Under the pieces are notes generated by a model that saw nothing but the letters and a program-made list of their open reading frames with translations, searched no databases and was not told where the DNA came from. DNA of 64,000 nt from a bacterium (GTDB taxonomy: Bacteria; Actinomycetota; CALGFH01): NCBI GenBank assembly GCA_046727955.1, contig JBKPDO010000010.1:5823-69822 (forward strand). The letters run 5' to 3'. A program made the translations under genes and the position numbers. Below are positions 15,561 to 59,460 of this stretch, piece by piece (the first letter of the stretch is position 1; each line of letters opens with the position of its first letter).

Positions 15561-15710
15561 GGTCCGGGGGGCTCTCTAGCGAGGCCCCTCTCCCCCCGCG
15601 GTGACTCGCACAGCCGAGCGTAGCCCCCCGGTCAGAACAGGGTCCGGGGGGCTCTCTAGCGAGGCCCCTCTCCCCCCGCGGTGACTCGCACAGCCGAGCG
15701 TAGCCCCCCG
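15561..15710. repeat. Direct repeat, 71 bp x2 separated by 8 bp, in a divergent intergenic region. Each unit carries a GGGGGG...CCCCCC hairpin related to the dispersed G5AGC/GCTC5 family.
   Basis: ggtccggggggctctctagcgaggcccctctccccccgcggtgactcgcacagccgagcgtagccccccgg occurs twice. Confidence 0.8.
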
Positions 15711-15775
15711 GCGCGACAGCCCTGGCACTACTATTGCTGGCCTCCGTCCGATGCCGGCGAAAGGCGGTCTGCAGC

Positions 15776-16744
15776 ATGCGCACCCTGGTTACCGGAGGCG
15801 CGGGGTTCATCGGCTCCGCCCTAGTGGACCGCCTGGTCCACGGCGGCCACGAGGTCGTGGTGGTCGACGACCTCTCGACCGGGAAGGTGGAGAACATCGC
15901 CGATGCCATGGCCTCCGGTCGCGCCCACCTCGCCGAGGTGGACATCGCCGGGCCGGACCTGGCCGGCGTGGTCGCGGGGGCCAGGCCAGAGGTCGTCTAC
16001 CACCTCGCCGCGCAGATCGACGTGCGCCGCAGCGTCGCGGAGCCGGTGCTCGACGCCCGCATCAACGTGCTCGGCACCATCCAGGTGGCCGGGGCGGCCC
16101 TGGAGACTGGCTGCCGGCGGCTGGTCTTCGCCAGCTCCGGCGGCACCGTGTACGGCGAGCCGGACCCCTCCGAGCTGCCGATCGACGAGTCCTATCCACC
16201 GCGGGTGACCAATCCGTACGGCGTCTCCAAGCGGGCGGCCGAGGACTACCTGGACAGCTTCGCCGGCCTCCGTGGGCTCGAGCCGGTGAGCCTGCGGCTG
16301 GGCAACGTCTACGGTCCTCGCCAGGACCCCAACGGCGAGGCGGGGGTGGTGGCAATCTTTTGCGACCGGCTGCTGTCGGTCCGCCCGGTGACGGTGTTCG
16401 GCGACGGGCGGCAGACGCGCGATTACGTGTTCGTGGACGACGTGGTGGACGCCTTCGTGGCCGCCGGAGAGTCTTACGGCGTGGCCGGGGCCAAGCTCAA
16501 CATCGGCACCGGGACCCAGACCTCGGTGCTGGAGCTGTACGAGGCGCTCCGTGCGGTGACCGGGTTCGGCCCCGAGCCCACCTTCGTCCCGCCCCGCCCT
16601 GGCGAGCTGCAGGCGATCGCGCTGGACTGCGCCCGCGCCGAGCAGGTGCTCGGCTGGCGGCCGAAGCTGGACCTGAAGGCAGGGCTGGAGCGCACCTGGG
16701 TGTGGGCGTTCCAGGAGGTCAACACTGGGAGCGTCGGCGGGTGA
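15776..16744 (+). CDS. NAD-dependent epimerase/dehydratase (UDP-glucose 4-epimerase-like)
   Basis: MRTLVTGGAGFIGS Rossmann motif, YxxxK region and overall SDR-e architecture. Internal ATG is taken by frame arithmetic. Confidence 0.8.
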   Translation: MRTLVTGGAGFIGSALVDRLVHGGHEVVVVDDLSTGKVENIADAMASGRAHLAEVDIAGPDLAGVVAGARPEVVYHLAAQIDVRRSVAEPVLDARINVLGTIQVAGAALETGCRRLVFASSGGTVYGEPDPSELPIDESYPPRVTNPYGVSKRAAEDYLDSFAGLRGLEPVSLRLGNVYGPRQDPNGEAGVVAIFCDRLLSVRPVTVFGDGRQTRDYVFVDDVVDAFVAAGESYGVAGAKLNIGTGTQTSVLELYEALRAVTGFGPEPTFVPPRPGELQAIALDCARAEQVLGWRPKLDLKAGLERTWVWAFQEVNTGSVGG

Positions 16745-17571
16745 GCGGCGCCGAAGGGCCAGGCGCCAGCGGGCCAGGCGCCAGCGGGCCAGGCGCCAGC
16801 GGGCCGGTCCGGCTCGAGGTGGCGGCGGGCGTCGCCACTGTGACCCTCGACCGGCCGGAGGCGCTCAACGCCATCTCGACCGACCTGGCGCGGGCGCTGG
16901 CGGCCACGTTCGAGCCCCTGGCGACCCGGCCCGACCTGCGCGCGGTGGTGCTGACCGGCGCCGGCGACAAGGGCTTCTGCGCCGGCGCCGACCTGCGGGA
17001 GCGGAGCGGCTTCGACGACCACGACTGGTTCGTGCAGCGGGAGGTGTTCCGGCGTGCCTTCGGCGCGGTGCGGCGCTGCCCGCTGCCCACGGTCGCGGCG
17101 GTGTTCGGCTTCGCGCTCGGGGGCGGCTGCGAGCTGGCGCTCGCCTGCGATCTGGTGGTGGCCGCCGACGATGCCACTCTGGGGCTGCCGGAGGTGCGTC
17201 TCGGCCTGGTCCCGGCCGGCGGGGGTACGCAGCTGGTGGTGCGCCGGGTGGGGCGCTCCGCCGCCAAGGACCTGGTACTGACGGGGCGGCGGGTCGGCGC
17301 GGCCGAGGCGCGGCGGCTCGGCCTGGTGGACCGGGTGGTTGCCCGCGTCTCGGTCCATGAGGCCGCCCGGGAGCTGGCCGGCGAGATCGCGGGCAACTCG
17401 CCCACGGCCGTGCGGCTCGCGAAGTGGGCGCTGGACCTGGGCGCTGACCTGGCCCAGGAGGCCGGGCTGGAGGTGGAGGACCAGGCCTGGCGCCGGGCGG
17501 TGCTCTCCGACGACCGCCGCGAGGGCATCGCTGCCTGGAACGAGCGCCGTCCGCCCCGCTGGCCGGGCTAG
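16741..17571 (+). CDS. Enoyl-CoA hydratase/isomerase (crotonase family; methylglutaconyl-CoA hydratase-like in context). GTG start overlaps the epimerase stop. N-terminal (GPGAS)x3 repeat.
   Basis: LDRPEALNAI..GAGDKGFCAGADL..GGGCELALACD crotonase motifs. 15-bp tandem repeat x3 at 16756-16803. Confidence 0.75.
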   Translation: MSGAEGPGASGPGASGPGASGPVRLEVAAGVATVTLDRPEALNAISTDLARALAATFEPLATRPDLRAVVLTGAGDKGFCAGADLRERSGFDDHDWFVQREVFRRAFGAVRRCPLPTVAAVFGFALGGGCELALACDLVVAADDATLGLPEVRLGLVPAGGGTQLVVRRVGRSAAKDLVLTGRRVGAAEARRLGLVDRVVARVSVHEAARELAGEIAGNSPTAVRLAKWALDLGADLAQEAGLEVEDQAWRRAVLSDDRREGIAAWNERRPPRWPG

Positions 17572-17588
17572 ACAGCCTGTTTGCATTC

Positions 17589-17833
17589 GGGGGGGAGCCC
17601 GAGACAGCTCCCCCCGAACCCCCCCACCGCACCTCGACGTGACCCCTGGGTCGGGGGTCAGCACCGCGATCGGGCAGGTGCGCCGTCCGAACCCCCCCAC
17701 CGCACCTCGACGTGACCCCTGGGTCGGGGGTCAGCACCGCGATCGGGCAGGGTCGCCGTCCGAACCCCCCCGTCGGGTACCTCGACGTGATCCCTGGGTT
17801 GTGGGTCAGCACCGTGACCGGGTAGGGTCGCCG
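17589..17833. repeat. Palindrome ggggggagc-N9-gctcccccc (17589-17616) followed by ~73-bp tandem repeat x3 (17614-17833), in a convergent intergenic region
   Basis: Unit ccgaacccccccaccgcacctcgacgtgacccctgggtcgggggtcagcaccgcgatcgggcagg.gcgccgt. The third copy is degenerate. Confidence 0.8.
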
Positions 17834-17866
17834 TGCCGCGGATCACCATTGCAACCAGGCCCCGCG

Positions 17867-19600
17867 TCAGTCGGGCTCCAGGACGACCAGGGTCTGGCCG
17901 GCCGAGACCGGCTGGCCGGCCGCGAACGGGACCTCGACCACCGTTCCGGCGAACGGCGCTCGCAGCGGCGTCTCCATCTTCATCGCCTCGACCACGGCCA
18001 GCAGGTCGCCCGCGTCCACCCGGTCGCCCGGCGAGACCTCCACCCTGCTGAGCGTTCCCGCCAGCGGCGAGGAGACCCGACCGCCGTCCCCACCCCGACC
18101 GGCGAGCGCCGAGGGGCGGTGCCGGTAGAGCCGCACCGGGTAGGTTGCGCCGCCGACCGTGACCGTGAAATCGGGCCCGGCACCGCCGGCGGCGCTCCCC
18201 CCGGCGGCGGGCGCCGGCTGCGCGAGGTCGCTCAGGTCCAGCGTCTCCTCGAGCCAGGTGGTCCAGTGGGCGCCGGCGCGGAAATCCCCGTGGTCGAGGA
18301 TGCGCGCCAGCGCCGCCGTGGTGGTCGGGACGCCGTCGACCTCGAGGTCGGCCAGGGCCGCGCGCATGCGCTCGATCGCCTCGCCCCGGTCACGGCCCCA
18401 GGCGATGACCTTGCCGAGCAGGTCGTCGTAGAAGGGCGAGACCTGGTCGCCGGACTGGTAGCCGGCGTCGACCCGCACGCCGGGTCCACCCGGCCAGCGC
18501 AGCCGCGCGATCGCCCCTGAGGCGGGCAGGAAGCCGCGGCCAGGGTCCTCCGCGTTGATGCGGCACTCGATCGCGTGACCCGCGAAGCGGACCTGCTCCT
18601 GACAGAAGCCGAGCGGCTCGCCGGCGGCGATGTGGAGCTGGGCCGCCACGATGTCGATGCCGGTCACGGCCTCGGTGATCGGGTGCTCCACCTGGAGCCG
18701 GGTGTTCATCTCCAGGAACCAGGCGCCGCCTCCGGCCGAGTCCCAGAGCAGCTCGACCGTGCCCGCGCCGGTGTAGCCGCACGCCTTGGCCACCGTCACA
18801 GCCCAGGTGGTCATGCGCTCGCGCACCTCGGCGGGCAGGCCGGGCGAGGGGGTCTCCTCCACCAACTTCTGGTGGCGCCGCTGCACCGAGCAGTCGCGCT
18901 CGCCCAGGTGCACGATGCCGCCGTGCGCGTCGGCCAGGACCTGTACCTCGACGTGACGCGGGCGCTCGAAGAAGCGCTCGAGGTAGCAGACGCCGGAGCC
19001 GAAGGCGGCCGCCGCCTCCCGGCTGGCGGCCTCCAGCGCGGCCGCCGCCTCTTCCGGGCCACGCACCACCCGGATGCCGCGGCCGCCGCCTCCGGCCGCC
19101 GCCTTGATCGCCACCGGCCAACCGTGCGCCTCGCCGAACGCGGCCACCTCCGCAGCGTCGCCGACCGGCTCGGTGGTGCCGGGCACCGGCTCCACCCCGG
19201 CGGCCAGCACCGTGCGGCGGGCCGCCAGCTTGTCGCCCATCTGCGCGATGGCGTCGGCGGGCGGACCCACCCAGACCAGCCCGGCCGCCTCCACTGCCCT
19301 GGCAAAGTCCGCGTTCTCGCTGAGCAGCCCGTAGCCGGGGTGCACCGCCTCGGCACCCACCTCGCGCGCCGCCGCGAGCAGCCTGCCCGCGTCCAGGTAG
19401 GACTCGGTGACACGGGCGCCGCCGAGCGCCACCGCCCGGTCCGCCTCGCGCACGTGCAGGGCACCGGCGTCCGGCTCGGAGTAGACCGCCACGCCCACCA
19501 GGCCCTGCTCACGGCAGGCGCGCAGCACGCGCACGGCGATCTCCCCCCGGTTGGCGACCAGCACGGTGCGGAAGGGCCGAGCAGCGGTCATGGCGGTCAT
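17867..19600 (-). CDS. Biotin-dependent acyl-CoA carboxylase alpha subunit (biotin carboxylase plus C-terminal biotinyl/BCCP domain); methylcrotonyl-CoA carboxylase-like in context
   Basis: MTAMTAARPFRTVLVANRGEIAVRV.. BC N-terminus and EAMKMETP biotinylation motif. ATG overlaps the upstream stop (ATGA). The ORF-track N-terminal extension is an artefact. Confidence 0.85.
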   Translation of the reverse strand: MTAMTAARPFRTVLVANRGEIAVRVLRACREQGLVGVAVYSEPDAGALHVREADRAVALGGARVTESYLDAGRLLAAAREVGAEAVHPGYGLLSENADFARAVEAAGLVWVGPPADAIAQMGDKLAARRTVLAAGVEPVPGTTEPVGDAAEVAAFGEAHGWPVAIKAAAGGGGRGIRVVRGPEEAAAALEAASREAAAAFGSGVCYLERFFERPRHVEVQVLADAHGGIVHLGERDCSVQRRHQKLVEETPSPGLPAEVRERMTTWAVTVAKACGYTGAGTVELLWDSAGGGAWFLEMNTRLQVEHPITEAVTGIDIVAAQLHIAAGEPLGFCQEQVRFAGHAIECRINAEDPGRGFLPASGAIARLRWPGGPGVRVDAGYQSGDQVSPFYDDLLGKVIAWGRDRGEAIERMRAALADLEVDGVPTTTAALARILDHGDFRAGAHWTTWLEETLDLSDLAQPAPAAGGSAAGGAGPDFTVTVGGATYPVRLYRHRPSALAGRGGDGGRVSSPLAGTLSRVEVSPGDRVDAGDLLAVVEAMKMETPLRAPFAGTVVEVPFAAGQPVSAGQTLVVLEPD

Positions 19601-22100: not shown

Positions 22101-22235
22101 GGCACCTCGAGAAACTCAGCAAACCCGAACACGATCCTACCGGCCCCACCACTCCCCCGGCTCAGCTCACCGACACCCACCGGCACTCGGTCGCAAAGAA
22201 AAGGGATCCCCAAATGTCGAGGACCCCGGCTGGGA

Positions 22236-22916: not shown

Positions 22917-23042
22917 CCACCGCGGCCCCGCTCAAGAGCCCACAGCCCCGCTCAAGAGCCGGGCCCGGGTCCTTGGGTCCGGACTGGGGCCGGACCGTTG
23001 CACGATCGCAACCTCCGCGGCCGATCTTGACGGATGTAGCGG

Positions 23043-24020: not shown

Positions 24021-24039
24021 CTCGCCGAGACCGGCCGTC

Positions 24040-24290
24040 CCACACCGACCATGGCACAGGCGCTCTTGGGGGGCCGCCGGAGGGGTCCGGGGAACCCCGA
24101 GGGCCGGAGGGGTCCGGGGAACCCCAAGGGGGTGCCCCGGTGGGTCGGGCCCCGGTGGGTCGGGTCCCAGTGGGAAGGGGGGAGCGAGCTCCCCGTACGG
24201 CACCACGGAACGATCTTGACCTTGGGGGGCGTGGGGGGAGCGAGCTCCCCCCACATGGATAGACCTGCCCCGGGCGCCGAAGCGCGCTGT
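24040..24290. repeat. Composite dispersed repeat (REP/MITE-like). It has module A (ccgaccatggcacaggcgctcttgggggg), a 27-bp tandem (ggccggaggggtccggggaaccccgag x2), and a module B hairpin (gtggggggagcgagctccccccacatggatagacctgccc).
   Basis: It sits between convergent genes (GerMN-domain gene ends at 24020, birA ends at 24290). Near-identical modules recur at 56993-57295 and 59421-59460. Confidence 0.75.
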
Positions 24291-26960: not shown

Positions 26961-27274
26961 ACAGCGATAACGGCTTGGAGTCCGCCTTCGGCGGACGATC
27001 ATCTGACTCCGACCGCCAGACTCGGCGGTCGGCCGCCGACCGCAGAATTCTGCGGTCGGCGGGCGGGCTGCGTTTCGAGCTACTCAAGGGCACGCCGGAG
27101 GGGGACGAGGCCGAGGTGCTCGGGGCGGCGATCGACCGGCTGGTCGCCTGGGACCGCGGCCAGGAGTCGAGCGGCTGGGTCACCAGCGTGCGGCCCGGCA
27201 TCGGCCTGCGCGCCTGGAGCCCAGGCAGCCGCTGGAGCCAGAGCCTGCGCTCGTCATGGGGCGGGGATCGTTGA
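26957..27274 (+). CDS. Putative acyl-CoA carboxylase epsilon subunit (AccE-like). Start uncertain; a GTG overlaps the accD stop.
   Basis: Position between the accD-like and accA-like genes. [21 protein letters not shown] and a W/R/G-rich tail resemble actinobacterial AccE/PccE peptides. Confidence 0.4.
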
Positions 27275-30197: not shown

Positions 30198-31585
30198 CCC
30201 ACGTGCTCCATCGGCTCGCCCCCACTCTTGCCGCCCTCGCCGCCGCCGCCCTCGCCGCCGCCCTCGCCGCTGCCGCCCTCGCCGCCGCCGTCACCCTTGC
30301 CGTTGCCGGTCCGGCGGTCGCCGCCGTTGCCGTTTCTGCGCGTGCGGATCGGGCCACGCCGCCAGGCGGGAGGCAGCAGATGGTCGAGCACGTCGTCCAC
30401 CGAGACCGCGCCCAGCAGCCTCGTCTGCTCGTCGCACACGGGCGCGGCCAGCAGGTCGTAGGTGGCCAGGTACTCGGCGACCCGTCTGGTCGGCAGGTTG
30501 GGCGAGAGCACGTCCAGGTCGGTGTCGATGAGGGACCCCAGCGGGGCTCCCGGCAGCTCACGCAGCAAACGCTGGAAGTGCGCCACGCCCAGGTAGCGGC
30601 CGGTCGGCGTCTGGTTGGGCGGCCGCACCACGAACACCTGCCCGGCCAGTGCCGGTGGCAGGTCCGGGTCGCGCACGCGGGCCAGCGCCTCGGCGACCGT
30701 GTCGCTGGCGCGCATGATCACCGGCTCGGTGGTCATCAGCCCGCCGGCCGTCTCCTCGTCGTAGACCAGCAGCCGGCGCACCGGCTCGGCCTCCTCGGGG
30801 ACCATGAGCGCCAGCATCCGGGCCCGCTCCGCCTCGGACATCTTGCCCAGCAGGTCGGCCGCGTCGTCCGGGTCCATGGCCTCCAGCACGTCGGCCGCGC
30901 GCTCGTCGCCCAGGCGCGCCAGCAGGCCCGCCTGCACCTCCTCGGGAAGTTGCTCCAGCGTTGCCGCCAAGCGGTCGTCGTCCAGCTCGGCGGCCATCTC
31001 CTCGCGCGTCTCGGTGGGCAGAGCGAGCAGCGCGGCCGCCACGTCGGCGGGCCGCAGGTCCGCCAGGGCGGCGAGGCGCGACTCCGCCGATTCCCCGGCC
31101 TCCAGTCCGGCCACCATGTCCCAGGGCAGGCGCAGGTGGCGGGCGCGACGCCACGGCCGCAGGCCCGATCCAGGCTCTACGACGTCCAGTGCCGAGACCA
31201 CCCAGCCCTCGCGGATCTGGCTGATGGCCACGTCGTTGATGCGGTACACCCGGCCCGTCTCGCGGTGCCGCACGCGCGCGTCCACCAGCTCTCCCAGCAC
31301 CAGCGTCTCGCCGGCGCGCAGCTCGAAGGGGCGGAGGTTCACCGTGCCCGTGGTCAGCGTGGCCCCGCTCGCGTCCAGCTCGCGAACCCGGCCCATGGCG
31401 ATGAAGATCGGCCGGCGCTGGACCCAGACGGTGAGCCCGAGCACCACGGGCGGCGAGCCCGGGGCGGCCCTGGCGATCACGACGTCCGCGATTCGACCGA
31501 TCATCTCCCCGCTCGGCGCTCGTACCGGCAGGCGGGCCAAGCGCGAGACAAAGAGCTGCTCGCTCGATAAAGCCACCCCGGTCAC
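30194..31585 (-). CDS. Cytoplasmic MgtE_N plus CBS-pair protein without the MgtE TM domain. Carries an N-terminal PRC-barrel-like region and a C-terminal Gly/Glu-rich low-complexity tail.
   Basis: MgtE_N acidic helical region (EEMAAELDDDRLAATLEQLPEE..). CBS region. Tail GNGKGDGGGEGGSGEGGGEGGGGEGG. Confidence 0.7.
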   Translation of the reverse strand: MTGVALSSEQLFVSRLARLPVRAPSGEMIGRIADVVIARAAPGSPPVVLGLTVWVQRRPIFIAMGRVRELDASGATLTTGTVNLRPFELRAGETLVLGELVDARVRHRETGRVYRINDVAISQIREGWVVSALDVVEPGSGLRPWRRARHLRLPWDMVAGLEAGESAESRLAALADLRPADVAAALLALPTETREEMAAELDDDRLAATLEQLPEEVQAGLLARLGDERAADVLEAMDPDDAADLLGKMSEAERARMLALMVPEEAEPVRRLLVYDEETAGGLMTTEPVIMRASDTVAEALARVRDPDLPPALAGQVFVVRPPNQTPTGRYLGVAHFQRLLRELPGAPLGSLIDTDLDVLSPNLPTRRVAEYLATYDLLAAPVCDEQTRLLGAVSVDDVLDHLLPPAWRRGPIRTRRNGNGGDRRTGNGKGDGGGEGGSGEGGGEGGGGEGGKSGGEPMEHVG

Positions 31586-47937: not shown

Positions 47938-48004
47938 GGTCAGTCCTTGCGCGTCGGGTCGCCGATCACGAACCTGGTCATCCTACCTGTCAGCCAGCGC
48001 CTGC

Positions 48005-49528
48005 TCACACCGCCTCGGCGGTGCGGCGGAGGGGGACAGCCACGGGCAGGTAGGCGAGGGGCAGGCGCAGCTCGAAGCGGGCGCGCCCGCCCGCCTCGCT
48101 GGGGTCCACAGCGCGCAGCTCGCCGCCGTTGGCGTGGGCGAGCTGCCGGGCCATGGCGAGACCGTGGCCAAGCCTGCTCTCGGGAGCGTAGTCACCGTCC
48201 AGATCGGACTGCTCGAAGATGCGCTCGCGCTGCTCGGGGGGGACGTCGACGCCCTCGTCCTCGACCGAGAGGACCACGCGGTCACCGTGTCGGCTCGCGC
48301 CGAGCTGGATGGGGGTCTCCGGAGGCGCATACCGGTGCGCGTTGACGATGAGGTTGCCGAGGAGGTCGAGGATCTCGTCCTGGTTGACGCAGACCGGGAG
48401 ACTGTCGTTCGGTGCCTCCGCGACCACGGGGCGGCCCGCGCAGATGGTCTTGGCAAGCTGCTCGGCGACGTTGACCAGCTCGGCGGCGTCCACGCGCCGG
48501 CGCTCGGGCTCTGCGCTGTGGGCGGCGGTGATCTGCAGCTGGTCGAGCTTGCCGGCGAGCTGCTCGGTCTGCTCGACGCCGTTGCTCGCCAGGCCGTCGA
48601 GCCAGCCGAGGTCGCGCCGCTCGGCCTCTCGGGAGATGGTGCCGAGCAGCCCCTTGAGCATTGCGGTGGAGGCTCGCAGATCGAGCGCCATAGCCGAGAG
48701 CTGCAGGCTGTTTACGCCGCTGCCGGCCTCGGCCTGGCGCCTGAAGCGGTCGGCGACCACGAACAGGTGCCGGTAGTGGAGCAGCTCCTTGGCGTACTCG
48801 CGGCTGAGCGCCTCGGCGCGGTTGGCCGCGCGTCCCGCCACGTACATGGGCAGCGCCGGCACGGCCAGCACCACGGGCAGGACCAGACGGTGCTCGGCCA
48901 CCAGCAGCGCGACCAGCACCATGCTGAACTGGACCGCGCCCTCCAGCAGCTCGACCTGGGTGCCCGCGAACAGCGAGGAGGGGGTCAGCGGACGCCGCTC
49001 CGCCAGCGCGATGGCCACCCGCACCATCAGCCGGTTGACCAGCACGAGCACGATCGTGGCGGCCACGAAGGCGGGCACCTGCTCGAGCCCCAGCGATGGC
49101 CGCCCCCCGAGATGCTGGTAGACCCAGCCGGCGGCCGCGATCGACAGGGCGTACTGGCCGGCGTTGAAGGACACACGCAGGGCCGGCTTGCGGTGCAGGA
49201 GGTCGCTTACGACGCTGGCGACCATGAAGACCACGACCGTCAGCGGGATACCCCAGCCGGTCAGCAGCGCCAGGGCGAAGGGGCGCGACATGGTGATCTG
49301 ATAGACGGCGTTGCGGCGCCACACCGGAATGCGGATCAGCTCGGCGGGGAGCACGCACGCGGCCAGGACCCAGAAGGAGAGGTCAGCCTGCCTCGCCGCG
49401 GCGACGACGTCAGGGAGCAACCAGACAAGGAACCCGATGCCCACCAGGCCAACCAGGACCAGATAGACCTCCACGCCGGTCGGTTGGCGTCTGGCGCTCG
49501 GGAGGGCCAGACGGAATTGGCTCGCCAT
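48005..49528 (-). CDS. Histidine-kinase-like protein paralogous to 163-1854 (same polytopic N-terminal domain, HATPase_c present) but lacking the phospho-acceptor His in the H-box
   Basis: FWVLAACVL../LSFNAGQYAL.. collinear with FWLLAVLVL../LWFNVGQQVL.. of the first kinase. The H-box region reads SLQLSAMALDLRASTAML with no His. Confidence 0.7.
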   Translation of the reverse strand: MASQFRLALPSARRQPTGVEVYLVLVGLVGIGFLVWLLPDVVAAARQADLSFWVLAACVLPAELIRIPVWRRNAVYQITMSRPFALALLTGWGIPLTVVVFMVASVVSDLLHRKPALRVSFNAGQYALSIAAAGWVYQHLGGRPSLGLEQVPAFVAATIVLVLVNRLMVRVAIALAERRPLTPSSLFAGTQVELLEGAVQFSMVLVALLVAEHRLVLPVVLAVPALPMYVAGRAANRAEALSREYAKELLHYRHLFVVADRFRRQAEAGSGVNSLQLSAMALDLRASTAMLKGLLGTISREAERRDLGWLDGLASNGVEQTEQLAGKLDQLQITAAHSAEPERRRVDAAELVNVAEQLAKTICAGRPVVAEAPNDSLPVCVNQDEILDLLGNLIVNAHRYAPPETPIQLGASRHGDRVVLSVEDEGVDVPPEQRERIFEQSDLDGDYAPESRLGHGLAMARQLAHANGGELRAVDPSEAGGRARFELRLPLAYLPVAVPLRRTAEAV

Positions 49529-49650
49529 GACGCCGAATCCCCTCTAGACCGGACCGTCGTCCCATACCGAATATCGGTCAGCTTCTCGTATTAGAGTAAC
49601 TTCCCTGTCAAACCACCAGCTAGCACTAGGATTCTGCTAAGCAAAATGAT

Positions 49651-49712
49651 TATGACCAAAAGTAAGGGCTGCTCGATAGGGGGTCCTTCGTTCTTCTCGA
49701 GCAGCCCTCGGC
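49651..49712 (-). terminator. Strong intrinsic terminator on the minus strand: 11-12 bp GC stem (agggctgctcga / tcgagcagccct) with loop, followed by CTTACTTTTGG
   Basis: Read directly. Lies in the only AT-rich stretch of the window (49600-49680). Confidence 0.6.
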
Positions 49713-49742
49713 CACACCGGTCACAGAGGACCGGTCAGTGGC

Positions 49743-49838
49743 TCAGTACTTGTACATGGCGCTGGCGGAGAACGCGAGCGCAGCGAGCCCGGCAAGCGCC
49801 GCGGCGATACGCGCCATGCGGCCCTTGAGGCGTGTCAT
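49743..49838 (-). CDS. Small ORF, 31 aa (MTRLKGRMARIAAALAGLAALAFSASAMYKY): basic N-terminus plus a hydrophobic helix
   Basis: Consensus-strength SD GGAGGGGG 7 nt upstream of ATG. Flanked upstream by a weak terminator and downstream by a strong one. Confidence 0.35.
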   Translation of the reverse strand: MTRLKGRMARIAAALAGLAALAFSASAMYKY

Positions 49839-49950
49839 CCTGTCACCCCCTCCGTTGGGGACAGCGTTGACCAGGCAGCCAGTTGGCCGACCACCGGGTC
49901 GGGGTTGGGGGAAGGCGAGACCGGATCGCCTACGGCCCGGGATTCTAACC

Positions 49951-49976
49951 AAAAACCGCGTGAAACGCTCGTTTCG
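49951..49976 (-). terminator. Weak hairpin (gaaac-gagc-gtttc) followed by U5, about 100 nt downstream of acnA
   Basis: Read directly; the stem is short. Confidence 0.35.
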
Positions 49977-50072
49977 CACAAACGTTTCGGTAGCCGGCAC
50001 TGGTTGCTCGCGTCACGAGATCAGAAAGCCCTAACGGATCACTAATCGGGCAGCTCGGGACGGGTGCAGCCG

Positions 50073-52922
<2,850 letters not shown>

Positions 52923-53032
52923 ATCGCGTCCCTCCAGCCGTTCCTCTCACGCGTAGCATGCTCCCAGAGGGCCAAGGGTACCCACCCGCGCCGGGCCACG
53001 GCACCCACGATAATCGAGGGGGAAGCACCACC

Positions 53033-53656
53033 ATGAGCAAGCGCGGCGTGCAGCGCGGCTCGAGCAAGCGGCCGACTGGCTCGGCGAGAAAGGCCGCGAT
53101 GCGGCGCCGGCGGGAGCGGCGCCGGCGCGCGGCGATCATCACTGGGGTGACTCTGGTGGTGGCCGGCGCGGTGGTCGCCGCGGTGCTGCTCAGCCGCGGC
53201 TCCGGCGGGGCCACGGCGGGCTACGGCAAGGTCAAGACCTTCACCGTCTCCAGCCGCGTCCACACCACGGCGCCGGTGAGCTATCCGCAGAACCCGCCGG
53301 TCGGAGGTCCGCACAACCCGGTCTGGCAGAACTGCGGCTACTATGACCAGCCGGTGCGCAACGAGAACGCGGTCCACTCGATGGAGCACGGCACGGTGTG
53401 GATCACCTACCGGCCCGGGCTCCCTGCTCCAGGTCGCCTAGCGCTCGCCGGCCTCGCCCGCGCTCAGACCTACATGCTGGTCAGCCCCTACCCCGGCCTG
53501 CCGGCGCCGGTGGTCGCCTCTGCCTGGGGCGTGCAGGAGTGGTTCCACACCGCCACGGACCCCCAGCTGAACGACTTCATTGCCAAGTACCGCCAGGGGC
53601 CGCAGACGCCCGAGCCAGGCTCGCCGTGCACTGGCGGCACCGGAACGCCGAAGTGA
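53033..53656 (+). CDS. DUF3105 domain protein with an N-terminal basic region and one TM
   Basis: VHSMEHGTVWITYRP DUF3105 signature. RBS GAGGGGGA upstream of the ATG. Confidence 0.75.
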   Translation: MSKRGVQRGSSKRPTGSARKAAMRRRRERRRRAAIITGVTLVVAGAVVAAVLLSRGSGGATAGYGKVKTFTVSSRVHTTAPVSYPQNPPVGGPHNPVWQNCGYYDQPVRNENAVHSMEHGTVWITYRPGLPAPGRLALAGLARAQTYMLVSPYPGLPAPVVASAWGVQEWFHTATDPQLNDFIAKYRQGPQTPEPGSPCTGGTGTPK

Positions 53657-53670
53657 CGCCGAAGTGACGC

Positions 53671-54603
53671 TCATACGCTGAGCTTGGCCAGGTCGGCCTG
53701 CTTGGCGCGGACCGCCGCGGCCGCCTGGCGCAGGTCGGCCAACTCGCCCTCGGCAAGCGGCAGCTCGACGATCTCCTTCACCCCGCCGCGGCCGAGCCGC
53801 ACCGGTACGCCCAGGTAGACGCCGTCGATGCCGTACTGGCCGGTCACCCAGGCGCACACCGGCACGAGCGCGCCCGAGTCGGCCAGTACCGCCTGGACCA
53901 TCGCGGTGGCGGCGCTGGACGGGGCGTAGTAGGCCGAGCCAGTCTTCAGCAGCGCGACGATCTCGCCGCCGCCGTCGCGGGTACGCTGCACGATGCGCTC
54001 GACGGTGCCGGCGTCGGCCAGTTCGAGCAGCGGCTTGCCGTCCACCTTGACCAGGCTCGGCACCGGCACCATGGTGTCGCCGTGCGAGCCGAGTGTCATA
54101 GCCTCGACCTTGCTGGGGCTGGTGCTCAGCTCCTCGGCGACGAAGTGCTTGAAGCGAGCGGTGTCGAGCATGCCCGCCTGGCCGACCACCCGCTCCTTCG
54201 GGAAGCCGGAGACCTGGGCCGCCAGGGCGGTCATCTCGTCGAGCGGGTTGGACACCACGATGAGGACCGCGCCGGGCGAGCCCTCTACCAGCCTGCTGGT
54301 GACTTCACCGACGATCTTGGCATTGGTCTCGAGCAGGTCCATCCGGCTCATGCCGGGCTTTCGGGGCACGCCGGCGGTGATCACGCACACGTCCGAGCCG
54401 GCGGTCTCCTCGTAGCCGTTGCTGCCGACGATGCGGGTCTCGAAGCCCTCGATCGAGCGGGACTGGGCCATGTCGAGCGCCAGCCCCTGCGGCAGGCCCT
54501 CGATGATGTCGGTCATCACCACCTCGTCAGCGAGGCCCTTCTCGGCGATCCGCTGCACCGTGGTGGAGCCGTATTTGCCAGCTCCAACAACCGTGACCTT
54601 CAT
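53671..54603 (-). CDS. mdh: Malate dehydrogenase (LDH-like MDH)
   Basis: MKVTVVGAGKYG..ITAGVPRKPGMSRMDL.. Confidence 0.85.
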   Translation of the reverse strand: MKVTVVGAGKYGSTTVQRIAEKGLADEVVMTDIIEGLPQGLALDMAQSRSIEGFETRIVGSNGYEETAGSDVCVITAGVPRKPGMSRMDLLETNAKIVGEVTSRLVEGSPGAVLIVVSNPLDEMTALAAQVSGFPKERVVGQAGMLDTARFKHFVAEELSTSPSKVEAMTLGSHGDTMVPVPSLVKVDGKPLLELADAGTVERIVQRTRDGGGEIVALLKTGSAYYAPSSAATAMVQAVLADSGALVPVCAWVTGQYGIDGVYLGVPVRLGRGGVKEIVELPLAEGELADLRQAAAAVRAKQADLAKLSV

Positions 54604-54605
54604 GC

Positions 54606-55694
54606 CTAGACCCCCTGCTCGATCCCGGTGATGACCGCGTCGGCGACCTGGCTGGTGCCGACCGCGGTGGGGTCGTCGCGGTGCGGCTTCATGTCGTAGG
54701 TGACGCTGCGGCCCTCGGCGATGACCGCGGCGATGGCGCGCTCGAGCCGGTCGGCGGCGTCGCCCTCACCCAGGTGCCTGAGCATCAGCACGCCGGAGAA
54801 CATCATCGCCATCGGGTTGACCTTGTTCTGCCCCCTGTACTTGGGGGCCGAGCCGTGGGTGGCCTCGAACACCGCCGCCTGGTCGCCGAGGTTGGCGCCG
54901 GGCGCCACGCCGAGGCCCCCGACCAGCCCGGCGCCCAGGTCGGAGAGGATGTCGCCGTAGAGGTTCGGCAGCAGCAGCACGTCGAAGTTCTCCGGCTTCT
55001 GCACCAGCTGCATGCACATGTTGTCGACCAGGTACTCGTCGTACTCGATGTCGGGGTACTGTTTGGCGACCTCGCGGCTCACCGCGTAGAAGAGCCCGTC
55101 GGTGTGCTTCATGATGTTCGCCTTGGTCACCGCCGTGACCCTCTTGCGCCCGTACGCGCGGGCGTACTCGAAGGCGAACCTGGCGATGCGCCGCGTGCCG
55201 GTGATGGAGATCGGCTTGATCGAGATGCCGGAGTCCTCGCGGATGCGCTTGTCCTGCAGGCCGTTGAGGAACTCGATGACCTGCCTGGCCTGGGCGGTGC
55301 CCTCCTCGAACTCGATGCCCGCGTACAGGTCCTCGTGATTCTCGCGCACGATCACCAGGTCGACGTTCTCGTGGCGCGAGCGGACGCCCTTGTACCACTT
55401 GCACGGCCGCAGGCATGCGTACAGGTCGAGCTCCTTGCGCAGTGCGACGTTGACGCTGCGGAAGCCGGTGCCGATCGGCGTGGTCAGGGGGCCCTTGATC
55501 GCCACCCGGTTGGCGCGGATGGACTCGAGCACCGGCTGGGGCAGCGGCGTCCCGTACTGCTCGATGACCTCGGCGCCAGCCTCCTGGACGTCCCAGTCGA
55601 ACTGGACACCGGTCGCCTCGAGCACGCGTCGCGTCGCCTCGGACAGCTCGGGACCTACACCGTCACCAGGGATGAAGGTGACTCGGTGGACCAT
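54606..55694 (-). CDS. icd: Isocitrate dehydrogenase (isocitrate/isopropylmalate dehydrogenase family, short homodimeric type)
   Basis: [31 protein letters not shown] and [10 protein letters not shown] motifs. The TCA context supports IDH over LeuB. Confidence 0.75.
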
Positions 55695-55864
55695 CTCGGA
55701 AGCTCCTCTCGTAGCTCCTCAGCTCTTGAGCGAGCCAAGAGTACCGCCGGCGCGAGCCGCGCAGGTCCCTGGACGGGTCAGCCGAGGTAGTCGGAGGATG
55801 TACTGGTCGGGCGGGTTCCCTACGATGTTGCGAGAGGCGCCCTCGAGAGACCGGAGGAACCGAG

Positions 55865-56992
55865 ATGGCGGATGGCAAGGGAAAAGGACTCGAGGGCGTG
55901 GTCGCGGCTCAGACCAGCATCTCCGACATCGACGGCCAGCAGGGTAAGCTTTTCTACGCTGGCTATGACATCGCGGACCTGGCCGAGCACTCCACCTTCG
56001 AGGAGACCGTCTACCTGCTCCACCACCTCGAGCTGCCGACCCGGGAGCAGCTCGACGGGGTGAAGGAGGTGCTGCGGGCGGGCCAGCGCCTCGACCCGAT
56101 GCTGGTCCGGCTCATCTCGGCGCTCGGCGACAACACCAGTCCCATGACGGTGCTGCGCACGGTGATCTCGGCGTCCGCCGCCCTGGACGCAGAGCTGGAC
56201 GACGATTCGTCCGAGGCGAACCTCCGCAAGTCGTACCGGCTGGTTGCGCTGACGCCGCAGGTCGTGGCCGCCCTCCACCGGCTGCGCACTGGCGGCCAGG
56301 CGGTCGAGCCGCGCGACGACCTGTCACTGGCCGGCAACTTCCTCTACTCGCTCACCGGCAAGGAGCCGGACGTCCAGATCGCTCGCGACTTCGACGTCTG
56401 CCTGGTGCTGTACGCCGACCACACCATGAACGCCTCGACCTTTGCCGGGCGGGTCGCGGCGGCTACCCTGGCGGACATCTACGCATCCGTCACCGCCGCC
56501 ATCGCCACGCTCCAGGGCCCTCTGCACGGCGGCGCCATCGAGCAGGTCCGCCACATGCTCGACGAGATCGGCACGCCCGACCGGGCCGCCGACTACGTGC
56601 GCGACCGGCTCGCCCGCAAGCAGAAGGTGATGGGCTTCGGCCATCGCGTCTACAAGACGTGGGACCCGCGGGCGACGATCCTGCGCGCGATGTCCCAGCG
56701 CCTCGGCCAGCAGCTCGGCGACACCCACTGGTTCGAGATCTCCGATCGCATCCAGGAGACCGTGCGGGCCGAGAAGGGCCTGTACCCGAACGTGGACTTC
56801 TACACCGCCAGCGTGTACTCGGCGCTCGGCATCCCGCCCGACCTGTACACCACCCTGTTCGCCACGGCGCGCATGGCCGGCTGGACCGCCCACATCCGCG
56901 AGCAGTACGCCGACAACCGCCTGATCCGGCCCGACTCCGAGTACATAGGCCCGCCGCCGCGCCATTGGATCGACATCGACCAACGCGGGTAA
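55865..56992 (+). CDS. Citrate synthase (small type; could be 2-methylcitrate synthase)
   Basis: GFGHRVYKTWDPRA signature; 375 aa. Confidence 0.85.
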   Translation: MADGKGKGLEGVVAAQTSISDIDGQQGKLFYAGYDIADLAEHSTFEETVYLLHHLELPTREQLDGVKEVLRAGQRLDPMLVRLISALGDNTSPMTVLRTVISASAALDAELDDDSSEANLRKSYRLVALTPQVVAALHRLRTGGQAVEPRDDLSLAGNFLYSLTGKEPDVQIARDFDVCLVLYADHTMNASTFAGRVAAATLADIYASVTAAIATLQGPLHGGAIEQVRHMLDEIGTPDRAADYVRDRLARKQKVMGFGHRVYKTWDPRATILRAMSQRLGQQLGDTHWFEISDRIQETVRAEKGLYPNVDFYTASVYSALGIPPDLYTTLFATARMAGWTAHIREQYADNRLIRPDSEYIGPPPRHWIDIDQRG

Positions 56993-57295
56993 GCCTGGCA
57001 CAGGCCGCTCTTCGTTTGACCGCCCACCCCGACCATGGCACAGGCACTCTTTCGTTTGACCGCCCGCCCCGACCATGGCACAGGCCGCTCTTCGTTTGAC
57101 CGCCCACCCGCCCCGACCATGGCACAGGCGCTCTTGGGGGGCCGTGGGGGGAGCGAGCTCCCCCACATGGATAGATCTGCCCGGCGCGCGAAGCGCGCGC
57201 CGTGGGGGGAGCGAGCTCCCCCCACATGGGTAGACCTGCCCGGTGCGCGAAGCGCGCGCCGTGGGGGGAGCGAGCTCCCCCATATGGGTAGATCC
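56993..57295. repeat. Composite dispersed repeat, tandemly amplified. It has about 3.5 copies of the 44-bp module A (ccgaccatggcacaggc.ctcttcgtttgaccgccc.cc) and then 3 copies of the ~58-bp module B. Module B is a G5AGCGAGCTC5 hairpin plus a GGCGCGCGAAGCGCGCGCC hairpin.
   Basis: Read directly. Lies between convergent genes (citrate synthase and metF-like). Confidence 0.8.
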
Positions 57296-58204
57296 TCACC
57301 TTGGCATTGGCCGGGGCAATAGATGCGCCGCCTCGATGAGTTGCGGTACGCCGCTGTCTGGGCCGAGGCCCATCAGGTGCACGCCGCGCACGCCCGCCAG
57401 CCCGCGCACCTGTTCGATTGCCTCGGCGGCCAGGCTGACGCCCTCGGCACGCTGGTCGGAGGCGGCGCGCAGCCGGCGCAGGGTGTCGGCGGGCACGGCC
57501 CAGCCGGGCAGGGCCGCGAACCGCTCGAGCTGCGCGGCGGAGCGCGGCGGCAGCATCCCGGCGAGGATCGCGACCTTCTCCGTCAGCCCGCGCTCGCCCA
57601 TCCGCTCGAGCCAGGTCGCGAACCCGGCGACGTCGTAGACCGGCTGCGTCTGCACAAAACGCGCGCCGGCGGCCACCTTGGCCTCCAGGCGCGCCCCGCC
57701 GGAGGGGTCGGCGCCGGGCGCCTCGGCCACGCCGATCAGGAATGGCGCGGGCGGCGCGACGGGCACGCCGCCGGGCCCGACGCCCCGCGCGAGGTCGCCC
57801 GTCATGCGCGCCAGTCCCACCGCGTCCAGGTCGAAGACCGCCTTGGCGTTGGTGAACGGGCCGACCTCGAGCGGGTCGCCAGACAGGCACAGCACCGCGC
57901 GGATGCCAAGGGCGTGAGCGCCGAGCAGGTCGGCGGCGAGGGCCAAGCGGTTGCGGTCGCGGCAGGTGAGCTGGAGCACCGGCTCGAGGCCCTCGCCGGC
58001 GGCGAGCACGGCGGCGGCCAGCGGGGACATGTCGACCCGAGCGGTGGCGTTGTCGGTCACGTTGACGGCGTCGACCATGCCCCGGAGCTGCCGGGCCATG
58101 CGCCGAACCATCTCAGGGTCCGGCGAGCGGGGTGGCACCAGCTCGCCAGTAACCACGAAGCGCTCTTGCTCGAGGAGCGCGCCGAACCTCCCGAAATCGG
58201 TCAA
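57296..58204 (-). CDS. metF: Methylenetetrahydrofolate reductase (MetF/MTHFR family)
   Basis: MTHFR TIM-barrel family; 302 aa. The start overlaps the folD stop. Confidence 0.75.
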   Translation of the reverse strand: MTDFGRFGALLEQERFVVTGELVPPRSPDPEMVRRMARQLRGMVDAVNVTDNATARVDMSPLAAAVLAAGEGLEPVLQLTCRDRNRLALAADLLGAHALGIRAVLCLSGDPLEVGPFTNAKAVFDLDAVGLARMTGDLARGVGPGGVPVAPPAPFLIGVAEAPGADPSGGARLEAKVAAGARFVQTQPVYDVAGFATWLERMGERGLTEKVAILAGMLPPRSAAQLERFAALPGWAVPADTLRRLRAASDQRAEGVSLAAEAIEQVRGLAGVRGVHLMGLGPDSGVPQLIEAAHLLPRPMPR

Positions 58205-59097
58205 GCGTCGCTCCCTCCTCCGGGCGCGGCCGCATTCGCGCGGCGCGCCAGCTCGGTGGCGGCGGTGACCGTATTGGCCAGCAGCATCGCCACCGTCATC
58301 GGGCCGACGCCGCCCGGCACAGGAGTATAGGCGCCGGCGACCTCTGCGACCTCGGCGACGACGTCACCGACCAGCCGCCCCTCGATCCGGTGGTTGCCGG
58401 CGTCGACCACGGCGGCGCCCGCCTTGACCATGTCAGGGGTGATCATCCCGGCCACGCCGGCGGCGGCCACCAGCACGTCCGCCTCGCGGGTGAACCGGGC
58501 GAGGTCGCGGGTGCCAGTGTGGCACAGCGTTACGGTGGCGTTGGCGCCGGGCGCCTTGGCCGACAGCAGCACCGCCAGCGGGCGGCCGACCAGCAGACCA
58601 CGCCCGACGATCACCGCGTGGGAGCCCTCGACCTGGACCTTCTCGCGGCGCAGTAGCTCGACGATGCCGATCGCGGTGGAGGGCGCCAGCCAGGGGTCGC
58701 CGCGCAGCAGGCGGCCCTCGTTCCACGGGTGGAGGCCGTCGACGTCCTTGGCCGGGTCGATCGCCTCCTGGACCTGGACCGGGTTCAGGCCCGCCGGCAG
58801 GGGGAGCTGCACGATGATGCCATGGATCGCCGAGTCGGCGTTCAGCGTCGCGACCTCGTCGAGGACCTGCTGCTGGGAGGCGTCGGCCGGCAGGGCGGCC
58901 CTGCGGGACTCGATCCCCCAGCGGCTCGCGGCGCGCTGCTTGGCGCCGACGTAGATGTGCGACGCCTCGTCGTCGCCGACCAGCACCGCCGCCAGCCCCG
59001 GCCGCCGCCCCGCCGCCGCCAGCCGCTCGACCTCACCGGCCAGCTCGGCCTGGAGCTGTGCCGCCACCGCCTTCCCGTCGAGGATCCTCGCTGTCAT
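58201..59097 (-). CDS. folD: Bifunctional methylenetetrahydrofolate dehydrogenase/cyclohydrolase
   Basis: ILDGKAVAAQ..YVGAKQRA..VGRGLLVGRPLAVLL..VPGGVGPMTVAMLL motifs. Internal ATG by frame arithmetic. Confidence 0.85.
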   Translation of the reverse strand: MTARILDGKAVAAQLQAELAGEVERLAAAGRRPGLAAVLVGDDEASHIYVGAKQRAASRWGIESRRAALPADASQQQVLDEVATLNADSAIHGIIVQLPLPAGLNPVQVQEAIDPAKDVDGLHPWNEGRLLRGDPWLAPSTAIGIVELLRREKVQVEGSHAVIVGRGLLVGRPLAVLLSAKAPGANATVTLCHTGTRDLARFTREADVLVAAAGVAGMITPDMVKAGAAVVDAGNHRIEGRLVGDVVAEVAEVAGAYTPVPGGVGPMTVAMLLANTVTAATELARRANAAAPGGGSDA

Positions 59098-59420
59098 CCA
59101 TCCTCCTCCGCGATCACCTGGGTGCCGCGCTCCATCTCCATCCTGGCAGCATGATTCCAGCCTTGCCCCGGCCGGCGCCGGACGAGCTGGCGGCCGCCTC
59201 CGCAAGACGCTCCCCGGACGCGGTGGCCAAGCTGGTCGGGGCCTTCGCCGAGCTGTGCAGGGCCGCCTCAGACGAGCGCGGGATCAGCGGCGTGGCCGGG
59301 TGACCTGCCTGGACGCGTGCACACACAGCGCCAGGGCGGCTAGGAACAAGATGGCGTCGATCGGGTCGTCCATGGGTTAGCGGTCCGATCTAGGTGAGGA
59401 CAGATGGTGGCCGGGTCTTG

Positions 59421-59460
59421 GGGGCCGGCCGTTGGGGGAGCGAGCTCCCCCACGTGGATC
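59421..59460. repeat. Single copy of the G5AGCGAGCTC5 hairpin module, between purH and folD
   Basis: gttgggggagcgagctcccccacgtggatc. Confidence 0.6.

Follow-up and report, generated by a model that had tools for sequence, protein, structure and literature searches.

A mosaic of intergenic hairpin repeats, dispersed between genomes and amplified in tandem, in an uncultured soil actinomycete

Results and discussion

The DNA analysed here, a 64,000-nucleotide (nt) stretch of contig JBKPDO010000010.1 from assembly GCA_046727955.1 (positions 5,823 to 69,822; hereafter the window), has a G+C content of 72% and carries genes of core metabolism (aconitase, isocitrate and malate dehydrogenases, citrate synthase, MTHFR, FolD and PurH), together with genes for acyl-CoA carboxylase subunits and biotin ligase. 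The citrate synthase has an identical counterpart in metagenome-assembled genome (MAG) GCA_046730375.1 and in several JGI soil metagenomes, and its relatives at 75-95% identity all stem from Actinomycetes MAGs and metagenomes, which identifies the host as an uncultured soil actinomycete. Several spacers of the window harbour short repeats which, taken together, are a mosaic of several G-run/C-run hairpin modules. The best-defined repeat, a hairpin element of about 75 nt, recurs in many other genomes, and it probably belongs to a family of non-autonomous elements resembling repetitive extragenic palindromes (REP, REPIN) or miniature inverted-repeat transposable elements (MITEs), which spread within a soil actinomycete lineage and were then amplified in tandem.

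Anatomy of the element and of the repeat loci

The element, found at loci 3-5 of the list below and in other genomes, is oriented. Its consensus reads ..CCATGGCACAGGCGCTCTTGGGGGGCC, then GTGGGGGGAGC-GA-GCTCCCCCCAC, then ATGGATCGGGGAC, and divides into a non-palindromic G-run left arm (CCATGGCACAGGCGCTCTTGGGGGGCC), hairpin 1 (GTGGGGGGAGC-GA-GCTCCCCCCAC, with an 11-bp stem) and a right arm, ATGGATyGGGGAC. The covariance model R1 was built from 27 copies, in whose alignment the hairpin columns are invariant; across a wider set of copies the central loop bases are mostly GA, with a minority of TC. Some lineages, that of the window included, possess a second hairpin with a C-GAA-G loop. In both the window and the relative L099 (L numbers denote sequences fetched for comparison), hairpin 1 is followed by the linker ACATGGrTAGAyCTGCCC and then by hairpin 2, GGCGCGC-GAA-GCGCGCC. 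Another left-arm type (type 2), GGAACGnTnTTGACCTTGGGGGG, is present in L029, L031, L050 and L099 and, in the window, at 24201-24230. The two tandem modules can be described in these terms: module A is the left arm repeated in tandem, while module B consists of hairpin 1 plus hairpin 2. The hairpin core, GGGGGAGCGAGCTCCCC, is present exactly at six sites in the window, and when up to two mismatches were allowed on both strands 11 matches were obtained, against 0.13 expected from shuffles. The repeat features, with tandem arrays as delimited by Tandem Repeats Finder (TRF), are as follows.

15560-15711, no strand assigned: locus 1, family C, a 72-nt long-hairpin unit in two copies with an 8-nt spacer (TRF period 80, 1.9 copies, 100%)
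17567-17645, minus strand: locus 2, diverged copy of the element, TTCG subtype as in L015 (R1 22.7 bits, E 3.5e-4)
17614-17834, no strand assigned: locus 2, 73-bp tandem in 3.0 copies (TRF, 91%)
24045-24075, plus strand: locus 3, type-1 left arm CCGACCATGGCACAGGCGCTCTTGGGGGGCC (R1 28.3 bits for 24044-24101)
24076-24174, plus strand: locus 3, mini-hairpin modules of 27 bp in 2 copies, GCCGGAGGGGTCCGGGGAACCCCAAGG, and of 15 bp in 2.7 copies, GCCCCGGTGGGTCGG (TRF)
24178-24194, plus strand: locus 3, solo hairpin-1 core GGGGGAGCGAGCTCCCC
24201-24284, plus strand: locus 3, full element with type-2 left arm GGAACGATCTTGACCTTGGGGGGC (R1 53.9 bits for 24201-24274)
56996-57135, plus strand: locus 4, module-A array, 40 bp in 3.4 copies, TGGCACAGGCCGCTCTTCGTTTGACCGCCCACCCCGACCA (TRF)
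57112-57186, plus strand: locus 4, canonical full-length element (R1 77.7 bits, E 5e-20)
57141-57294, plus strand: locus 4, module-B array, 59 bp in 2.6 copies (TRF)
59400-59473, plus strand: locus 5, diverged full-length single copy GATGGTGGCCGGGTCTTGGGGGCCGGCCGTTGGGGGAGCGAGCTCCCCCACGTGGATCGAGGACTG (R1 45.4 bits)
63753-63810, plus strand: sixth locus, variant copy in a convergent spacer (R1 18.1 bits, E 0.007, for 63753-63802)

Loci 3, 4 and 5 thus carry one and the same element, locus 2 a diverged copy of it, and locus 1 a separate dispersed family. At locus 4, the module-A array begins 4 nt past the stop codon of the citrate synthase gene and the module-B array runs to within 1 nt of the stop codon of MTHFR, the convergent gene. 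The canonical element comprises left arm CCGACCATGGCACAGGCGCTCTTGGGGGGCC, hairpin 1 GTGGGGGGAGC-GA-GCTCCCCCAC (57144-57166) and right arm ATGGATAGATC, and each module-B unit runs from hairpin 1 through the linker to hairpin 2, the first copy of which lies at 57183-57201. At locus 3, other modules come next to the type-1 left arm in place of hairpin 1, in a layout identical to that of L046. The 27-bp array spans 24076-24130 and the 15-bp array 24134-24174; this mini-hairpin module (GGAGGGGTCCGGGGAACCCC...), which separates left arm from hairpin 1 here and in L046 alike, also stands alone in L013, L048 and L091 (blastn) and is hence itself dispersed. In the full element at 24201-24284, hairpin 1 is followed by ACATGGATAGACCTGCCCC and then by a degenerate hairpin 2, GGGCGCC-GAA-GCGCGCT, and the element stops approximately 5 nt short of the stop codon of a birA-like gene at 24290. 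The copy at locus 5 lies approximately 17 nt beyond the purH stop codon (59490), antisense to the purH-folD transcript, and is situated at the right end of an insertion of about 365 bp that is absent from L099. Within the same folD-purH segment, 59098-59400 contains a possible plus-strand open reading frame (ORF) of 51 codons and a 59-nt piece matching L103/L104 near their purH end.

The TTCG-subtype sequence of locus 2, GGTGGGGGGGTTCGGGGGGAGC-TGTCTCGG-GCTCCCCCCCGAATG, contains a hairpin that reads TTCGGGGGGGAGC...GCTCCCCCCGAA on the plus strand (at about 17587-17619; DNA fold z = -4.2). Every 73-bp unit begins anew with CCGAACCCCCCCAC, which is the G-run arm of the element in reverse complement, and the array therefore resembles a tandemly repeated arm, like module A at locus 4; blastn of the fetched sequences revealed no further copy of this unit. 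The unit of locus 1 has the closing stem CCGGGGGGCT...AGCCCCCCGG and scored 8.5 bits with R1 (E 4, not significant). In L099, both of its ends turn up again in a convergent spacer that is not orthologous (7491-7566; blastn), so that family C, too, is dispersed. At 53645-53670 an 11-bp tandem, ACGCCGAAGTG in 2.4 copies, duplicates the stop-codon region of a DUF3105 gene at the exact site where L099 (7483-7588) bears a family-C repeat; it may be a footprint of that repeat or a coincidence. The sixth locus, consisting of CATTTGGGGGGGTTCG plus the hairpin CGGGGGGGCGCC/GGCGCCCCCCG, is retained at the orthologous site of L099 with 91.5% identity. In total, the density is about 6 repeat loci in the 64 kb of the window and about 5 in 21 kb of L099.

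These assignments refine an initial annotation of the window, which had listed five loci with near-identical modules. All the repeat sequences it described are present where it had placed them or a few bases away, and both stem-loops of module B, described as perfect, are as written. Near-identity does not extend to all five loci: R1 finds full-length copies at loci 4, 3 and 5 only, a weak match at locus 2 and none at locus 1. Locus 5, taken for a single hairpin, is in fact a diverged full-length element, and the locus list itself, although its entries are real, had overlooked the sixth copy at 63753-63810 and the 15-bp array of 2.7 copies at 24134-24174. Nor is the whole composite palindromic, as had been proposed, since module B folds strongly as DNA (z = -3.8) while module A gives no fold signal (z = +0.8).

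The conserved structure was assessed further by RNAalifold and explicit pair counting. Among actinomycete copies only hairpin 1 is supported (99% paired, invariant), and among copies of a subfamily from Myxococcales, described below, hairpin 2 is supported as well, along with a single base pair at the foot of hairpin 1 that covaries (GU 16, GC 6, CG 6). The loops of hairpin 2 are GAA, GCA, GGA or GAAA, closed by C:G. Loops of the d(GCGAAGC) type are unusually stable in single-stranded DNA, an analogy which offers a hint that the hairpins may be read as DNA. Sequence conserved in a fixed order, stable hairpins and the G-U wobble pairs found on one strand of the Myxococcales copies would also suit a multi-copy gene for a structured small RNA or riboregulator. 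We regard this as very improbable, since no covariation-supported structure extends beyond the hairpins, no promoter-like sites are found, the copies are oriented either way with respect to the genes beside them, and tandem arrays of sub-units do not fit an RNA gene. Rfam speaks against it too: a search of the whole window against Rfam 15 at gathering threshold returned 0 matches, and a permissive Rfam search of locus 4 returned only chance-level matches to miRNAs and frameshift sites.

Position and orientation relative to genes

Genes of the window were called with a codon-position G+C likelihood script, whose calls near the repeat loci are consistent with those in databases for the same contigs or orthologous ones. 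The flanking genes are convergent at loci 2 (where an enoyl-CoA hydratase gene adjoins), 3 and 4 and at the sixth locus. At locus 1 the neighbouring genes, for a SpoIIE phosphatase and an epimerase, start divergently, a layout backed by database gene calls in L107, and locus 5 lies between two minus-strand, i.e. co-directional, genes, folD and purH. Three of the five loci initially listed are thus convergent, not four as had been counted. Enrichment at gene 3' ends does hold for the family at large: spacers occupied by the element in actinomycetes are convergent in 15/33 cases, compared to 49/269 of all spacers (p = 3e-4), and divergent in 1/33, compared to 54/269 (p = 0.009). Myxococcales spacers follow the same trend, which is not significant there. 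The hairpin core is found 10-61 nt from the nearest stop codon, and the element ends within approximately -8 to +37 nt of it. In co-directional spacers the copy lies near the upstream stop codon and far from the next start codon, in sense orientation in six cases and antisense in eight, which argues against a strand-specific RNA function.

Placement of this kind has a precedent in TRIT of Mycobacterium, the nearest actinobacterial analogue, with 147 palindromic copies that are mostly bidirectional and tightly placed at stop codons, and a mechanism left unresolved (PMC3152330). Like the element, TRIT is a conserved actinobacterial palindrome which sits at stop codons in both directions, and which lacks a canonical U-tract (PMC3152330); judged by gene coordinates, the element is likewise confined to the close surroundings of stop codons, whichever way it is oriented. 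TRIT was reported from Mycobacterium only (PMC3152330), and its sequence is unrelated. It is described as one hairpin with its centre some 8 nt within the coding sequence, whereas the element adds an asymmetric arm, a second hairpin and sub-arrays and, unlike TRIT, shows presence/absence polymorphism between close relatives.

The precedent lends itself to an explanation in which the repeats are selected cis-acting RNA elements, with hairpins kept for bidirectional termination or for protection of mRNA 3' ends and read by a conserved factor. The adjoining stop codons, the enrichment in convergent spacers and the very high stability of the hairpins all agree with this, as do the high sequence conservation between genomes, the covarying base pair at the hairpin base in Myxococcales copies, and the ordinary small hairpins held instead by empty orthologous spacers. 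We nevertheless judge it unlikely. A promoter/terminator scan found no T-tract after any copy on either strand, while mycobacterial RNA polymerase is reported to require a U-tract (PMC3993855). The stem is followed by CACATGG on one strand and by CACGGCC on the opposite one, and no terminator-like site in the scan overlaps hairpin 1 or 2; the nearest, at 17564-17579, precedes the locus-2 hairpin and lies outside it. Moreover, the conserved 30-nt arm is not palindromic and would be pointless in a symmetric terminator, arrays of three or more hairpins would be superfluous for termination, and the element is missing between the same genes in close relatives. Function alone would also leave unexplained how near-identical 75-nt copies spread to unrelated sites. 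A role as terminator or mRNA stabiliser, which the initial annotation had suggested, may plausibly be a by-product of the family. The same scan found no promoter-like site at the repeats, and two candidate promoter motifs in the left arms, a Sigma-54-like TGGCAC and a -35-like TTGACC, were dismissed on that account and for their misfitting spacing.

Gain, loss and copy number at orthologous sites

Syntenic 21-kb regions were compared from relatives whose gltA proteins are 95, 89, 86 and 85% identical to that of the window. Three spacers compare as follows.

gltA/MTHFR spacer: window, 303 bp; L099, 159 bp, composite; L101, 22 bp, empty; L103/L104, 104 bp, one clean copy; L105, 17 bp, empty
mdh/icd spacer: window, 2 bp, empty; L099, composite; L101, single copy; L103/L104 and L105, about 60 bp, no element
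folD/purH spacer: window, 392 bp; L099, 27 bp; L101, 107 bp; L103/L104 and L105, not comparable (UDG gene inserted)

The composite at mdh/icd in L099 consists of two left-arm units and two B units, i.e. it reproduces the architecture of locus 4 at a different site, and this recurrence makes the composite a property of the family and not an accident of one locus. The icd stop codon of L099 falls inside the element's CGTTTGACC motif. In addition, the sucC-side spacer of L099 holds three copies, while the same spacer is empty in L101, L103 and L105. Empty gltA/MTHFR spacers bear ordinary small hairpins, such as GCGGCC-TAC-GGGCCGC in L101.

Copy-number variation, which the initial annotation had anticipated, is seen among assemblies of the same species at locus 4 only, where L003 is one B unit short (two, not three) and the A array of L004 is reduced, and where assembly collapse may contribute. 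In L107, loci 1 and 2 have the same number of units, with many substitutions within the locus-2 repeat. In several public short-read contigs, G/C homopolymer artefacts (GGGGGGGGGGGGGCCCCCCCCC) replace the hairpin, and contigs from the same organism and related ones end in repeats at L001 7280-7333, at L107 1-60 and at the ends of L002, L004, L100 and L108. Since public contigs break inside the hairpin, the copy-number differences await long-read support, and since they end there repeatedly, the family probably contributes to the fragmentation of MAGs.

Tandem arrays at four loci and the variable copy number at locus 4 (B x2 in L003, the shorter A array in L004) might suggest purely local repeats that arise by slippage at each locus with no mechanism of dispersal, in the manner of variable-number tandem repeats (VNTRs) or mycobacterial interspersed repetitive units (MIRUs). 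MIRU/VNTR loci of Mycobacterium consist of 46-101-bp tandem units in the intergenic regions of operons, and MIRUs follow the orientation of the operon, in many cases spanning stop and start codons so as to couple translation. The element shares with them tandem units of tens of bp in actinobacterial spacers, and its locus-4 copy number appears strain-variable. Unlike them, it is hairpin-based, mostly single elsewhere and free of orientation bias, and it shows no in-frame coupling to flanking genes. The presence of the 75-nt unit at dozens of unrelated sites in many genomes, mostly as single copies, already contradicts a purely local origin, which we consider barely tenable.

Dispersal across genomes and a subfamily in Myxococcales

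When one genome per species was scanned for exact copies of a 17-mer, at least 93 stretches of DNA matched, and the dispersed, intergenic REP/MITE-like family proposed at the outset thereby extends beyond the window and the genome to many MAGs. At least about 30 of the matches represent the same element, usually once per 8-kb locus, in Actinomycetes/Actinomycetota MAGs from several studies. Among the matches listed, the element is repeated in at least seven actinomycete MAGs, with up to at least six matches per MAG and R1 scores of 52-91 bits; most copies in other genomes are single. GCA_046730375.1, DASQWY01, JASLBL01, DATABK01 and DASVXQ01 are among the MAGs with copies. Element copies across genomes are 84-92% identical to the window copy, compared to 85-95% nucleotide identity for the gltA coding sequence. 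Conservation on a par with gltA implies constraint, as would be expected if only near-master copies propagate or if a factor reads the sequence.

At least about 30 further matches come from Myxococcales, Deltaproteobacteria and Polyangia MAGs and form a distinct subfamily of about 135 nt, with the consensus ..TGACCGTGATCTGTTGGGGGGTCGA, GGGGGGAGCGAGCTCCCCCC, TTGTAGA, GGCGCC-GAA-GGCGCC and GGATCGAAGAGCG...CAGAGCGGTCAA in that order, and with ends that resemble imperfect terminal inverted repeats (CTTGAArTGACCG ... CGGTCAAyTCAAG). Both subfamilies have in common CTCTTGGGGGG, four variable bases, an identical 20-nt hairpin, GGGGGGAGCGAGCTCCCCCC, and TGGA after the hairpin. By hand alignment of the two consensus sequences, this shared core agrees at about 38/42 positions (approximately 90% identity). 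R1 scored the Myxococcales copies at 35-61 bits in matching orientation, compared to about 24-28 bits for the hairpin alone. VBKO01, DASWGQ01 and DASQBG01 belong to the Myxococcales genomes in which copies were found. The remaining matches listed are isolated hairpins in assorted taxa, which look like chance matches or ordinary terminator stems.

Two further observations touch on these sequences. Polyangia MAGs contain simpler hairpins, GCGGGGGAGCG(A/G)GCTCCCCCGC (L052 6089-6161; L032 5023-5061; L087 4521-4589), which occur singly or in tandem right after stop codons, without the G-run arm and with a stem as in the element; their sequence suggests that the hairpin stem may be used more widely in high-GC soil bacteria. 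In the window itself, a 194-bp convergent spacer contains a 15-bp inverted repeat, AGAGCGCCGGTCAAG at 9994-10009 and CTTGACCGGCGCTCT at 10110-10125, about 100 nt apart. With its TTGACCG..GCTCT motif it recalls both the type-2 left arm and the ends of Myxococcales copies, and no other copy was found in the compared sequences.

The TIR-like imperfect ends of the Myxococcales subfamily (TIR, terminal inverted repeat) raise the possibility of a classical MITE, i.e. a deletion derivative of an insertion sequence (IS) with terminal inverted repeats, mobilised in trans by a DDE transposase and flanked by target-site duplications. Actinomycete copies likewise end with a short inverted sequence, GAyCCATG, and insertion in either orientation and the presence/absence polymorphism at orthologous sites are in line with this origin. 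Yet the actinomycete inverted ends are short, those of Myxococcales copies being longer, and only 63% paired, the central hairpin and not the ends is most conserved, no target-site duplication is recognisable in the diverged flanks, and no IS or transposase with matching ends was seen in the fetched loci. Neither the actinomycete nor the Myxococcales consensus matched anything in a plasmid collection, and the 20-mer had 0 matches in viral contigs. Correia/NEMIS MITEs of Neisseria, as generally described, resemble the element in being 75-140 nt long, with imperfect inverted ends, either orientation, insertion polymorphism and possible transcript effects; they differ in that conservation of the element peaks at the internal hairpin and not at the ends, and in that neither a target-site duplication nor a parent IS was found for it. 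On balance, we hold a classical MITE to be improbable.

Comparison with REP systems and a possible route of spread

A close resemblance exists to the REP, BIME (bacterial interspersed mosaic element) and REPIN systems of Enterobacteria, Pseudomonas and Stenotrophomonas, which are mobilised by RAYT (REP-associated tyrosine transposase) enzymes and in which, as in the element, a GT[AG]G-type head accompanies a short hairpin rich in GC (PMC2817692; PMC3116915). Published REPs are made up of such a head and a GC hairpin, an example being GTGGCGAGGGAGCTTGCTCCCGCT of P. fluorescens (PMC2817692), which compares with GTGGGGGGAGCGAGCTCCCCCCAC of the element. In actinomycete copies head and hairpin read GTGG-GGGGAGC-GA-GCTCCCC(CCAC), where the G-T of the head is nearly invariant in the 27 copies and its GTG itself pairs with CAC; in Myxococcales copies, a (near-)invariant G-T-R-G head is followed by the hairpin GGCGCC-GNA-GGCGCC. 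The element further resembles REP/REPIN-RAYT systems in being extragenic, mainly beyond gene 3' ends and rare in promoter regions, in its many dispersed copies of high within-family identity that form mosaic clusters with other short motifs, and in that most copies have no adjacent transposase. The absence of an associated transposase, remarked on in the initial annotation, is borne out by a blastp comparison of neighbouring genes and by tblastn of the fetched loci, the latter of low power.

These likenesses underlie our view that the repeats are probably REP/REPIN- or MITE-like non-autonomous elements. New copies could be generated by a copying machinery that, like RAYT-type HUH/Y1 enzymes, recognises the hairpin, perhaps in single-stranded form, and insertions away from stop codons would be purged by selection. 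The sub-parts (left arm as module A, hairpins 1 and 2 as module B) might then grow and shrink in tandem through slippage or unequal exchange, and other mini-hairpin modules might interleave with them to give BIME-like mosaics. Effects on transcripts, such as 3'-end protection or termination between convergent genes, would likely be a side-effect and not the reason for the family's existence.

Several points weigh against this view. REPs are short symmetric palindromes, whereas the element keeps an asymmetric 30-nt G-run arm, and REPs often alternate in orientation, whereas the arrays of the window and of L099 are head-to-tail direct repeats. An outer stem, or terminal inverted repeat, between CCCCGACCATGG and CCATGGATCGGGG was considered and rejected, as its 63% pairing is no better than that of shuffles; it shows a few compensatory C-G to U-A changes. 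A tblastn search of about 0.9 Mb of fetched loci for a RAYT/IS200-like ORF, made at low power with approximate RayT/IS200 TnpA queries, returned nothing below E = 1. The comparison of filled and empty sites revealed neither target-site duplications nor exact element ends, the relatives being too diverged. Counts from the exact-match scan are lower bounds and do not represent copies per genome, as the MAGs are fragmented, and short-read collapse could account in part for the copy-number differences between assemblies. An all-against-all blastp of 580 ORFs from the fetched loci yielded generic large families only and no shared small gene.

The RAYT/REPIN literature compared here makes no mention of Actinomycetota or Myxococcota, the hosts of the element, and Nunvar et al. 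tabulated REP sequences that vary from species to species and from strain to strain (PMC2817692), whereas the core of the element is shared by two phyla. A bolder proposal, possible but in our estimation doubtful, is that the recognition core CTCTTGGGGGG-N4-GGGGGGAGCGAGCTCCCCCC, together with a hairpin capped by C-GNA-G, marks a system of hairpin-repeat replication outside Proteobacteria that is common to Actinomycetes and Myxococcales. If so, either a hairpin-specific enzyme (a RAYT-like HUH enzyme or a new one) would have crossed phyla with its substrate, or a conserved host factor would constrain the sequence. The head-to-tail A/B sub-arrays would then reflect a distinct mode of growth, for instance repeated insertion beside an existing hairpin and not simple slippage.

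Other features of the window

Two adjacent perfect hairpins, CCGACCGCC-AGACT-CGGCGGTCGG and CCGACCGCAGAATTCTGCGGTCGG, lie at 27009-27060 in a 376-bp co-directional spacer of very low folding energy (-0.55 kcal/mol per nt), and blastn indicates no relation to the repeat family. Beside the aconitase gene, a 598-bp spacer (49475-50072) is 87% conserved in L099 along 587 nt, with partial conservation in L101 and L103-L106, and database calls give a 31-codon ORF there in relatives; it could be a conserved leader or a small gene. In-frame tandem repeats in coding sequence at 62479-62624 (42 bp in 3.5 copies, 97%) and 63111-63191 (24 bp in 3.4 copies) encode proline/glycine-rich stretches of the PPGWGQPS.. 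and YGQPPPG.. types in two adjacent plus-strand ORFs, and are unrelated to the hairpin family. Further in-frame repeats of 12-30 bp (1749-1818, 9376-9442, 16747-16805 and 30230-30302) are ordinary low-complexity coding sequence of a high-GC genome.

Conclusions

The element is a previously undescribed sequence within the known class of REP/MITE-like intergenic hairpin repeats, in that a text search of the literature did not find its hairpin sequence and neither the literature searched nor Rfam describes it. Its stand-out features are the head-to-tail arrays of sub-units, which recur at different sites, and the core shared by two phyla. As REP/REPIN repeats have been studied almost entirely in Proteobacteria, an actinomycete family with a sister family in Myxococcales would widen their range, and the element offers a concrete sequence with which to find the enzyme that copies it. 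Filled and empty sites, as well as tandem copy numbers, could become markers of strains or lineages once borne out by long-read assemblies. Finally, copies are located right at the stop codons of core metabolic genes (gltA, icd, mdh and purH) and may therefore affect the formation of 3' ends, which would be of relevance in a host group whose terminators are poorly understood.

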